A DNA stretch of 11,797 nt, taken from IMG/VR virus record IMGVR_UViG_2740892233_000017; one strand, given 5' to 3'. Positions within the stretch are counted from its first letter, which is position 1, and every line of letters starts with the position of its first letter. A program made the position numbers. Shown here piece after piece: positions 6,001 through 9,000 of this stretch. The DNA is from a virus. Taxonomy: Duplodnaviria > Heunggongvirae > Uroviricota > Caudoviricetes.

Positions 6001-9000
6001 ACCGGAGAGCTGGTTGACGCTTCCGGGATTTTCCGAAAATTATTGGTTGACGAATCTTTATTTTCCCGAAAGTTTCCGGACTGAAGCATGGCTTCGCGGC
6101 AATCGTTCCAGCCTGTAGCGTATGCAGCCGCTTTGCTGCTGCCTTCAACTGGCGCATCCTGCCAATACATTTCTTCCGGCACTATCGGCGCTGGAGGGGC
6201 GGCAAATAGATATCCGCCAAAGTCAGGAAGCTCTCTAATGGCCTGTACGAATTTTTGTTTGCCTACGTCAACCCCTAATGGGTAATGAGCTATAATCTTT
6301 GCCACCGGCTCTGCTTCCAGCGATGCCAGCGCAATCCGTGCCAGCTCTTCCGCTTCTTCTGCTGGAAGCACAACGTTGCTACCCGGTCCGTATGTTTCGC
6401 GCCAATGCTGGATTGTCAGCAGTCGATCTTTGGTAAAAGTGGTCATAGCTATTTCACCTTAATCTCAACATTTCGCAGCTTTAGCTCTACTGGCAGGTCT
6501 GACTTTCCTGTTAATGCTAATGCGAGATTTTCTGGAGTAGTGAGAACAGTTATTGTTTTCCCCCTCGCCAGACGAATAATCATGTGTATCTCGCTATCGT
6601 CACATGCTCCTGGTCGAACAATTGAGATTTGTCCGTTCATCTCACTCTCCTTTGATGCGAATGCCAGTAGCGCGGATTGCATCGATGACTTCAGAAACTT
6701 TGTATGCCATTACCGTTTGGTAATCATCGTGAAAATCTGTTCGATGNNNNNNNNNNCGGGCGTTCGGAATAAAGGAGCCTGACGTAGATTATCCAGTGAC
6801 GGTAGTCGAGGCTAAGGGCTTTCTTAAACTCATACCCACGTCTGCGGTAGTTATGAATCAGCCATTCGGCCTGTTCTTCAGTGCAGGGATCGTGCTGATA
6901 CCAGTCATATTTGAATGTGTGAGAACACCGCCCTTGCCTGCTGGCAGGGGCGATATCAGAATTGTGATGTTTGGTATTGTGCGCCATCGGTTTTCTCTGC
7001 TGGCGCAGCAGGTGCCAGTTGTTCAAGCTGGCGTGCGGCAATATTGTCTCTGATTTCTGTTGTCGTCAACAGGCAACGTGCTATCATCGAATGGTGTTCT
7101 ATCCTACTCCGTGAGGTTTACCATGCGTACAACCCAACAATTCAGCATTACATTAACTAACGAAATGGCTGACATGGTGCGCGCCCGTGTGGCTTCCGGT
7201 GCCTATGCTTCAGAAAGCGAGGTCATTCGTGAAGGGCTTCGCGCACTGAATGAGCGCGATAAAGCAATCGAAGCGTGGTTAACGCATTCAGCCGCCCCCT
7301 CTCTTGATTCTATCCGCGAAAATCCAAACAACGGACGCTCCATTTCACAGGTTCGCGCCGCGATTCGATCCGGGAAGTAATCTGCATGACATATGAAGTC
7401 ATCATTACTCCTGAGGCCGAACAACAAATAATCAACCTGCACAGGTATATAACGGAGAAAGCAGGGAACGTCATTGCTGACAATTATGCCAATGCGCTTC
7501 TTGATTATCTTGATGGGTTTTCTACATTCCCGCATCGGGGCAATAAACGCGATGATATTCGCCAGGGGATGCGGGTAACTCATTTCCGCCACAGAACGAT
7601 TATTGCTTTTGCCGTTGATAGCAGAAAAGTCTTTATTGTCGGTATCTATCATGGTGGGCAAAGTTATGAAACCGATTTCTTATAAACTTTTACCCACATC
7701 ATTCCGGTGTTAGAATTAACCGTCCGCCCCCTCTCTTACTGGCGGATTCGTAGGCTATATAAATCAAAGATCCCGGCTCATGTTTATGTCGGGATCTTTT
7801 TTCGGCGATTTATCCCCAGCGGCAAATCGAATACACCACCAGCGCCACCGCCATCGCAATTCCTACCGTTGTGAATGCTTCAGGCCAGGTCATCGTAAAA
7901 TATCCTCCACGCTTATCAGTCCGTTCCGCTCCAGATAACTCATCGCCTTATCCGGTAATTTGCAGTCTGGCTTCGCTTTCCTCAGTTGCCAGGTTAACTG
8001 CTTTACCAGCATGGTTAACTCATCGACCAGACGCTGATATCCCACTGGTTTGTATTCATGCAATTTACCGGCTGGCTCTGCTGCCAGCGATACCAGTGCG
8101 ATTTCCAGAACAGCAATATCCATCTTATATGTGCGGATGATGTCATGGTCGATTGTGCCCGGTATGCACAGTCTCTGTGTTTCAATAGTCTCCTCTGCGT
8201 GAGCTATTAACTGCTCTCTGGTAAAAGTCGTCATGCCGTAGCCCCTTCTTGATATTTTTCAAACCAGAACACAACTGGGTCAGATTTCATTTCAACCAAT
8301 CCCATACGAACCAGCGCTTTGCCTTTCCCGGACGCAAGGAATTCACGACGACCATCACTGATAATTCGCCGATAATCTTCCAGACTACTGCAATGCTTGT
8401 GCAGATTGCATGGGTGGCATGCCGGAACCATGTTGGATATATCGTCACGTTCCTGGTGAAGCATATTTCCATCAAAACGAATGACCGGTTTTACATGGTC
8501 TGCATGCCACTTTTCGCCAAGTTCGCAGCCGCAATAAGCACAGCGACCGCCGAACTTCATGCGCAGCTCTGCACGTTGTTTTTTCGTCAGTGCCATATCA
8601 GCTTTCCTTATACGGATTAATTTTATTGTGCAGTGTGCTGAACGACGCCCACACCACGTCGTTATACAATTCAATAACTGGCTCAATTATTTTCACGATA
8701 AACCAGACCAGTAATAGCGGGGGTATCGGTATCATCAACACGATAAATATAATGAGAAACAAAAATTCTGTCGCTCTACTTTTTCTCGGATATTCTTTTC
8801 TGAATAATGTAGTCATTTCTTACCGCCCTTTCAGGCGGCCTCCTGATGTTTTGAGGGTGCAGAAATCCCTCCGGTTAAGGATTAAATTTTTAACTAAATT
8901 TAATTATTCAGGCGCGATAAGCTGTTCCGCACAATCCAGCAATGCTTCTGTCGCTTCCTTAAGCGTTACTGTATCGCTATCATCCAGTCCTGCAACTTTT

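Follow-up and report, generated by a model that had tools for sequence, protein, structure and literature searches.

A probable ParD/ParE toxin-antitoxin operon carried as a self-contained cassette in a lambdoid Stx-type prophage

Four solved toxin-antitoxin systems, ParDE1 of Caulobacter crescentus (3KXE), ParDE3 of Mesorhizobium (5CEG/6X0A), ParDE2 of Vibrio cholerae (7R5A) and ParDE1 of Mycobacterium tuberculosis (8C24), gave the best profile and structure matches to the gene pair analysed here, a parDE module in an 11,797-nt stretch of Caudoviricetes DNA (IMG/VR record IMGVR_UViG_2740892233_000017; this whole stretch is hereafter called the window). They share with it the antitoxin-first gene order, the protein sizes (~85 and 99 amino acids, aa), a ribbon-helix-helix (RHH) antitoxin with a C-terminal toxin-binding tail, and a toxin of the ParE fold. 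ParE-fold toxins are also encoded by prophages, namely by PaaR2-PaaA2-ParE2 in cryptic prophages of Escherichia coli O157:H7 (5CW7/5CZE; template modelling (TM) score 0.78-0.80 against our toxin model) and by PfiT/PfiA in the Pf prophage of Pseudomonas aeruginosa (9W3A; TM 0.79). In V. cholerae the ParD2/ParE2 operator is made up of three 4-bp boxes, each about a helical turn from the next, and is not a single long palindrome (PMC10776004).

The locus in the window is very probably a canonical two-gene type II ParD/ParE operon that forms an autonomous cassette in a lambdoid prophage of the Shiga toxin (Stx) type, in which repression, neutralisation and gyrase poisoning would follow the pattern of the family. 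A first-pass annotation, made by reading the sequence alone, had described this unit, and its coordinates proved accurate, with every feature it named present where it had been placed. By our own reading, positions 7040-7810 of the plus strand form a single compact transcription unit, and the gap between the two open reading frames (ORFs) is exactly the 5 nt that had been claimed. The two genes are:

7123-7380, plus strand: parD antitoxin gene, 85 aa, with an N-terminal ribbon-helix-helix and a C-terminal helical toxin-binding part.
7386-7685, plus strand: parE toxin gene, 99 aa, with a ParE-type fold.

The profile search that the annotation had proposed as a check bore out its assignment to the ParD and ParE families, since both proteins exceeded the curated Pfam cut-offs; scores above curated thresholds for both members place the gene pair clearly beyond chance. 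For ParD the scores were 32.1 bits with PF03693 (cut-off 21) and 53.8 bits with the NCBIfam model TIGR02606 (cut-off 46.2), PF03693 was found in nearly all of the 2657 homologous clusters, and the protein fell into PHROG 6494 (E = 1.7e-56). It aligned with the solved ParD antitoxins at 23-37% identity. Its AlphaFold2 model (mean predicted local distance difference test score, pLDDT, 87.7) has an extended N-terminus followed by helices at residues 13-24, 31-66 and 74-84, and the best matches of this model in the PDB, searched with Foldseek, were the antitoxins ParD1, ParD2, ParD3 and PrpA. The small size of the domain made for weak E-values (0.06 or worse); the RHH part superposed on M. tuberculosis ParD1, V. 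cholerae ParD2 and PrpA with a root-mean-square deviation (RMSD) of 1.1-1.8 Å and 32-37% identity.

ParE matched PF05016 over its full length (40.4 bits, cut-off 23) and PHROG 5232 (E = 2.4e-43). Since PF05016 spans both ParE toxins and RelE-type RNases, as does the RefSeq name given to identical DNA ('RelE/ParE family toxin', next to 'ParD family antitoxin'), the branch was examined separately, using a family profile built from 96 relatives and searched against the PDB sequences. At E ≤ 1e-4 the profile matched ParE toxins only, in eight sequences with E-values from 2e-12 (6x0a) to 7.1e-5, and V. cholerae ParE2 (7r5a) came ninth at 5.5e-4; the proteins matched included Mesorhizobium ParE3, M. 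tuberculosis ParE1, PrpT, Caulobacter ParE1, P. aeruginosa ParE and the O157 ParE2 constructs. The AlphaFold2 model (pLDDT 90.4) has the topology b-a-a-b-b-b, in which a long alpha-hairpin packs against a sheet of three strands, and its top 23 Foldseek matches were all of the ParE type (TM 0.72-0.83, RMSD 1.5-2.7 Å). Judged by this profile and this predicted fold, the 99-aa toxin is a member of the ParE toxins.

Both genes are under purifying selection: compared with E. coli and Salmonella alleles, the ratio of nonsynonymous to synonymous substitution rates (dN/dS) was 0.06-0.23 for parD and 0.09-0.21 for parE, and the motif FPxRGNxRDDIRxGxR is nearly invariant in the close clade of the toxin. 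The two genes are probably co-transcribed, as their 5-nt gap holds neither a promoter nor a terminator and their pairing is retained in all homologous loci.

Downstream of parE lie two further features:

7686-7765, plus strand: 3' untranslated region, with an extended -10-like sequence TGTTAGAAT at 7708-7716 and a stem-loop, SL1, at 7723-7746 that has a CU-rich loop CCCUCUCUUACU.
7766-7802, strand not assigned: intrinsic terminator with a 10-bp stem, a 14-nt loop and T6, possibly bidirectional; the stem begins 80 nt past parE.

The perfect hairpin with six T residues that had been reported after parE was recovered in full: AAAGATCCCG (7766-7775) pairs with CGGGATCTTT (7790-7799) across the 14-nt loop, and the T run extends to 7802. 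Its folding energy was -19.7 kcal/mol on the plus strand (z = -4.5 against shuffles) and -16 kcal/mol on the minus strand (z = -4.25), and a simple consensus scanner missed it because the loop exceeds that program's 8-nt maximum. Across seven sequences all 112 pair cells of the stem are standard (100% paired) while the loop varies, and the stem has undergone two independent compensatory changes, from U:A to G:C in Salmonella and from A:U to C:G in strain LR-31. As a predicted structure the terminator is thus well supported and clearly beyond chance. The annotation had also called it shared; the hairpin itself stands, and its use in both directions, which is a prediction, is plausible because the minus-strand tail past the hairpin reads UUUGAUUU and a minus-strand ORF of 27 codons ends at 7810. 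This hydrophobic ORF (7810-7893, minus strand) is unannotated; it stops just before the hairpin, its start codon overlaps the stop codon of a 114-aa ORF (ATGA), and it is kept in the aligned Salmonella and E. coli loci, with no match in Pfam.

By analogy with the family, the operon would be repressed by dimers of ParD that bind, either on their own or with ParE as a bridge, to short boxes within the promoter and the leader, and the ParD tail would wrap around ParE and neutralise it. Once the labile ParD was no longer replenished, free ParE would be expected to poison DNA gyrase and so to cause DNA breaks, replication arrest and an SOS response. Loss or silencing of the prophage would then be penalised (addiction), and/or a superinfected cell would abort the infection. 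Lambdoid nin regions hold terminators that are overridden by antitermination; in lytic growth, phage early or nin transcription would run antisense through the cassette, and the hairpin could act as a two-way insulator. The prophage is of an SOS-inducible type, and released ParE would be expected to push it towards induction, since activation of ccd, another toxin-antitoxin system with a gyrase poison, induces lambdoid prophages (PMC10899753). In the prophages of non-O157 Shiga toxin-producing E. coli (STEC; O26, O103 and O145) a gyrase-poisoning toxin could in this way tie antitoxin loss to the SOS response and to prophage and Shiga-toxin induction.

A number of results weigh against this account, some of them at the step of repression and others at that of the toxin's target and role. 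The elements upstream of parD are:

7060-7087, plus strand: parDE promoter predicted by consensus scan, with a -35-like TTGTCG at 7060-7065, a 16-nt spacer and an extended -10, TG-TATCAT, at 7080-7087.
7057-7072, strand not assigned: palindrome CTGTTG-TCGT-CAACAG, by direct reading, with an invariant core TCGTCAA at 7062-7068.
7088-7122, plus strand: 5' leader AAT.GTGTTC.ATCCTACT, with a Shine-Dalgarno sequence GTGAGG at 7111-7116; a second operator candidate.
7040-7069, minus strand: candidate leftward (divergent) promoter from the consensus scan, with a -35 TTGACG at 7069-7064, an 18-nt spacer and a -10 AATATT at 7045-7040.

The scan found promoter-like sites no more often than in shuffled sequence, so support for the parDE promoter comes from conservation. 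In an alignment of ten upstream regions from four genera, the TG of the extended -10 and positions 1, 2 and 6 of the hexamer are invariant (10/10 homologues) and positions 3-5 vary (TATCAT, TAAAAT, TATTTT), the pattern that would be expected of a working sigma-70 extended -10 promoter. The position of the -35 is not conserved, owing to a 4-nt insertion in several homologues. The leader is near-invariant in E. coli, Salmonella, Yersinia, Erwinia and Enterobacter, and is as well conserved as the core of the palindrome.

The palindrome that had been described as operator-like is present, with CTGTTG at 7057-7062 and CAACAG at 7067-7072 flanking TCGT, and it overlaps the -35-like hexamer as claimed; it was the function read into it that fared less well. 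The arms pair 6/6 in one E. coli allele group only. Pairing falls to 5/6 in the O157 type and in Stx2a phage ArgO145, which encodes identical proteins, to 4/6 in Enterobacter and to 3/6 in Yersinia, and the arms are degraded with no compensatory change in ArgO145, Salmonella, Yersinia, Erwinia and Enterobacter. Nor is the palindrome by itself statistically unusual: the window holds six perfect 6-N4-6 palindromes where ~2.9 are expected, and ~0.17 perfect palindromes with 6-bp arms and a spacer of 0-10 nt are expected in any 60-nt stretch. What is invariant in the four genera is the core TCGTCAA, and on the opposite strand this reads TTGACGA, the -35 of the leftward promoter-like site.

These unconserved arms, the double use of the core, the unremarkable statistics and the short boxes of the ParD2 operator leave a role of the palindrome as ParD operator possible but unproven, and make a serious alternative, if in our judgement a somewhat doubtful one, of the reading that it is two -35 elements placed face to face (a TTG on each strand), with the ParD boxes elsewhere, for instance in the leader at 7088-7110. 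The minus-strand TTGACG-18-AATATT overlaps the palindrome, and its -10 (AATATT or TATATT), which sits at the very edge of the cassette, is kept in 8/10 aligned homologues; the equally conserved leader block would suit boxes located there. Against this, RHH repressors often bind sites that overlap a -35, a version with 5-bp arms (TGTTG-N4-CAACA) persists in the allele types of E. coli, those of ArgO145 and of the O157 orphan among them, and the two Salmonella loci keep 4/5 of these arm pairs. The operator and divergent -35 readings are compatible with each other and need not exclude one another. The leftward promoter-like site, were it active, would drive the 92-aa ORF to its left and the DUF968/RusA/Q genes beyond.

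Further points against our preferred reading, a ParD/ParE operon whose toxin poisons gyrase, concern the second gene. No NCBIfam model matched ParE, and its identity to the solved ParE toxins, gyrase-validated ones among them, is just 12-24%; it is therefore fold and family membership that point to gyrase as the probable target. Neither protein matched the defence models of PADLOC-DB at E ≤ 0.1, and our literature searches for this pair returned no experimental study. PrpT (7ycs) and the Pf-prophage toxin PfiT (9w3a) are among the structural matches, and presumably have regulatory roles in their plasmid and prophage systems.

On this basis the toxin might have the ParE fold without being mainly a gyrase poison: it might act on another target, or have only weak toxicity or be protective, and the chief role of the pair would be to regulate the prophage (for example phage production or the leftward promoter). 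We consider this improbable. The double role of TCGTCAA as the -35 of a promoter aimed at phage genes would agree with it. Several of the best matches speak for gyrase: M. tuberculosis ParE1 and V. cholerae ParE2 are reported to be gyrase-validated, and C. crescentus ParE1 and P. aeruginosa ParE count as such too. The near-invariant FPxRGNxRDDIRxGxR motif and the strong purifying selection are also what an active toxin would display. Two reports favour the alternative: a P. aeruginosa ParE is said to protect cells against anti-gyrase drugs (PMC6368863), and the residue with which V. cholerae ParE2 makes its key contact to gyrase is said to be poorly conserved in the family (bioRxiv 10.1101/2025.07.24.666505).

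Three other explanations fared far worse. That the toxin is a RelE-like, ribosome-dependent mRNA endonuclease is very unlikely: PF05016 and the RefSeq name cover both kinds of toxin and RHH antitoxins also pair with RelE toxins, but the antitoxin here is of the ParD and not the RelB type, no RelE, YoeB, HigB or YafQ matched the family profile in the PDB at E ≤ 1 (the sole RNase-type match, the RelE/StbE-labelled 7etr, was partial, with E = 1.9e-4), and RNase-type RelE, YoeB, YafQ and HigB structures fit the model far less well (TM 0.45-0.64, RMSD 3.3-5.8 Å) than ParE structures do. On this combined profile and fold evidence we assigned the protein to ParE and rejected an RNase identity of the RelE type. 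We likewise rejected, as hardly credible, a LexA box that would place parDE under SOS control; the palindrome contains the only CTGT-N8-ACAG in the window, and such control would be attractive for a gyrase poison in an SOS-inducible prophage, but the site has a heterology index of ~19-20 against 0.3-9.8 for 19 E. coli boxes, ranks only 37th in the window, has a G+C-rich centre, and loses its CTG/CAG arms in ArgO145 (identical proteins), the O157 type, Salmonella, Yersinia and Erwinia. Finally, toxin loss does occur, in O157 Stx2a phages that have parD and a parE cut off after codon 5, but it is most improbable that this parDE is a decaying, non-functional relic, with both ORFs intact here and in 328 complete genomes (at least 80% coverage), dN/dS well below 1, and a conserved promoter -10 and terminator.

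The parDE pair is already annotated and is an ordinary member of a very well-known family, so that as a ParDE module it offers nothing new; its value is contextual. The 771-bp unit is 100% identical in O26:H11 11368, O103:H2 12009 and many other STEC genomes, and of the 5426 complete E. coli genomes 371 carry parDE, in each case on the chromosome. In ArgO145 the DNA is 98.4% identical, and the depositors labelled it a toxin-antitoxin system. Homologues with toxins 62-72% identical occur in prophages of Yersinia, Erwinia and Salmonella, on the strand opposite to their neighbours except in Y. mollaretii; the Enterobacter homologues are flanked by insertion sequences instead of a prophage.

The proposal that the pair is a moron, embedded against the direction of the surrounding operon, held up when homologous prophages were compared. 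The orientation is opposite in nearly all prophage contexts, and the presence/absence comparison that had been suggested as a check found the cassette missing from the otherwise syntenic, wrbA-integrated prophage of strain 95-3192. The cassette extends from ~7040 to 7802-7889: ArgO145 and the O157 Stx2a phages are homologous from exactly 7040 onwards, prophages carrying hokD up to 7037 and again from 7890, and the stretch in common with a Salmonella prophage is 7027-7893. A predicted promoter and terminator of its own, and sharp junctions at ~7027-7040 and ~7889-7893, support its classification as a moron, and PHROGs classes the families of both proteins as 'moron'. The G+C content of the cassette does not depart from that of its flanks; only the AT skew flips there, along with the coding strand.

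How far this context can be extended is limited by the assembly. Runs of exactly ten N interrupt the window twice, at 6747-6756 and 10028-10037, and the stretch between them, 6757-10027, aligns end to end with the O26:H11 11368 chromosome at 99.8% identity, while coverage of the window by any single complete E. coli genome does not exceed 68%, as would fit a mosaic or scaffolded sequence. The window is probably a scaffold of contigs, in which 6757-10027 was placed as a separate contig; for this reason parDE cannot be linked securely to the wrbA/integrase end, and statements on context are safe within 6757-10027 only. The observation that parDE is the only plus-strand unit is confirmed within that stretch, and in the annotated homologous loci all neighbours are likewise on the other strand.

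A ~225-bp internal repeat of ~90% identity (8591-8815 and 10384-10608) probably caused the assembly to break at 10028. It also gives the minus-strand ORFs 8231-8686 (a homologue of HNH endonucleases) and 10132-10485 a common 30-residue N-terminus, MSQLLNCI.TW.GR.S.HCTIKLIRIRK. Elsewhere in the window, the Rfam family sRNA-Xcc1 (RF02221) matched 5236-5325 on the minus strand over the full length of the model (65.4 bits against a gathering threshold of 53, E = 2.6e-10). This match is intergenic, upstream of an antirepressor-like gene, and is the sole Rfam match at gathering level in the window.

The position of the cassette within the prophage varies. In ArgO145 it belongs to the early region near the integrase and adjoins the antirepressor gene; in most other E. 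coli prophages, that of O26 11368 included, its place is the nin region, between genes of the ead/DUF551 type and the 92-aa ORF (6757-6987, minus strand), which is followed by DUF968 (ydfU), RusA and Q. The 92-aa ORF was found at 5728 places in 2897 of the 5426 genomes. In the places sampled, the slot to its right was occupied otherwise by hokD, by rem and hokD (Qin-like), by hicAB and hokD, by phd-doc, or by an NgoMIV-type restriction-modification system, and in some prophages parDE and hok stand side by side. Given such varied cargo, the slot appears to be a hotspot where addiction and defence genes are swapped, with parDE as one alternative, and such swapping could be relevant to competition between prophages.

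Two observations concern recombination within the cassette. Across the five loci compared, synonymous divergence (dS) of parE within E. coli (0.23-0.28) exceeds that of neighbouring parD (0.06-0.08) by a factor of 3-4, and in ArgO145 a promoter of the O157 orphan type precedes genes for identical proteins; these contrasts suggest recombination breakpoints inside the cassette.

The 3' untranslated region has features of its own. Positions 7686-7765 are 95% identical to the Salmonella locus, against a dS of 0.27 for parD and 0.70 for parE, and the core 7708-7802 also adjoins a phd-doc cassette that has no parDE. On the plus strand 7708-7805 resembles a small-RNA gene, with the extended -10 TGTTAGAAT, a 5' stem-loop, an AU-rich linker and the terminator. 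An Rfam search of 7000-7950, which included this element, gave nothing at threshold, and a search of papers for the SL1 motif sequence found none. The SL1 stem is invariant and for that reason yields no covariation evidence. Searching the window for targets of the CU-rich loop returned only its own complement and one site with two mismatches, which is a 14-nt repeat in parD, and the count was no higher than chance.

This repeat is a 14-nt exact direct repeat, CCGCCCCCTCTCTT, found on the plus strand in parD at 7292-7305 and in SL1 at 7724-7737. A 14-mer repeat of any kind arose in one of 2000 shuffles of the cassette. The flanks of the two copies are loosely alike (TTAAC ... GATTC), and the Y. 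mollaretii locus has a partial ParD ORF downstream of parE; the repeat may be the relic of a decayed second copy of parD.

A partial module was seen in 45 phage records, mostly of Stx2a-converting phages and some of them from O157:H7 hosts, and in ~43 complete E. coli genomes. In the sampled phage Stx2a_JNE122398 (3001-4062; equivalent to 7040-7399 of the window) the promoter and an intact parD are kept, and beyond its fifth codon parE gives way to a small ORF and an HTH_3 gene. The small ORF has no Pfam match and, by eye, a possible lipoprotein-type N-terminus. The orphan parD has 86% DNA identity and a dN/dS of 0.16 (0.22 in the C-terminal toxin-binding half). Going by these sequences, the orphan ParD may neutralise the ParE of co-resident or competing prophages, and the toxin-less O157 Stx2a parD could serve as a ready test case for cross-neutralisation between prophages.

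These strands can be joined in a broader reading, which as a whole we hold to be rather unlikely: parDE would be an interchangeable occupant of a conserved lambdoid hotspot (with hok/sok, hicAB, phd-doc and restriction-modification as the others), the toxin-less O157 parD, maintained by purifying selection, would be an anti-addiction gene, and the ~84-nt segment 7722-7805 would be a new small RNA with a 14-nt identity to parD.

Set beside the known systems, the present operon departs from the four solved ParDE pairs in sequence (identities of 12-24% for the toxin and 23-37% for the antitoxin) and in setting, as its clade is confined to Enterobacterales and, apart from the Enterobacter loci flanked by insertion sequences, to prophages, whereas the solved systems come from plasmids, a superintegron and core chromosomes. 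It also has no evident triple box of the GGTA type, and its operator sites are candidates only. PaaR2-PaaA2-ParE2 we take to be a three-component system, with a separate regulator, PaaR, and an antitoxin, PaaA, that has no DNA-binding domain; here there are two genes between promoter and terminator, and the antitoxin has its own RHH domain. PfiT/PfiA is presumably a prophage-encoded toxin-antitoxin pair of a filamentous phage, and PfiT is larger (111-114 aa) and 16-17% identical to the present toxin. Closest in position are relBE-hokD of the K-12 Qin prophage and the hok/sok loci of lambdoid prophages, which use the same slot just upstream of the small ORF/DUF968 (ydfU)/RusA/Q block; the Qin-like locus that was retrieved had rem and hokD only. 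In kind both are unlike the present pair, hok/sok being a type I system with a membrane toxin and an antisense RNA, and RelE an RNase.

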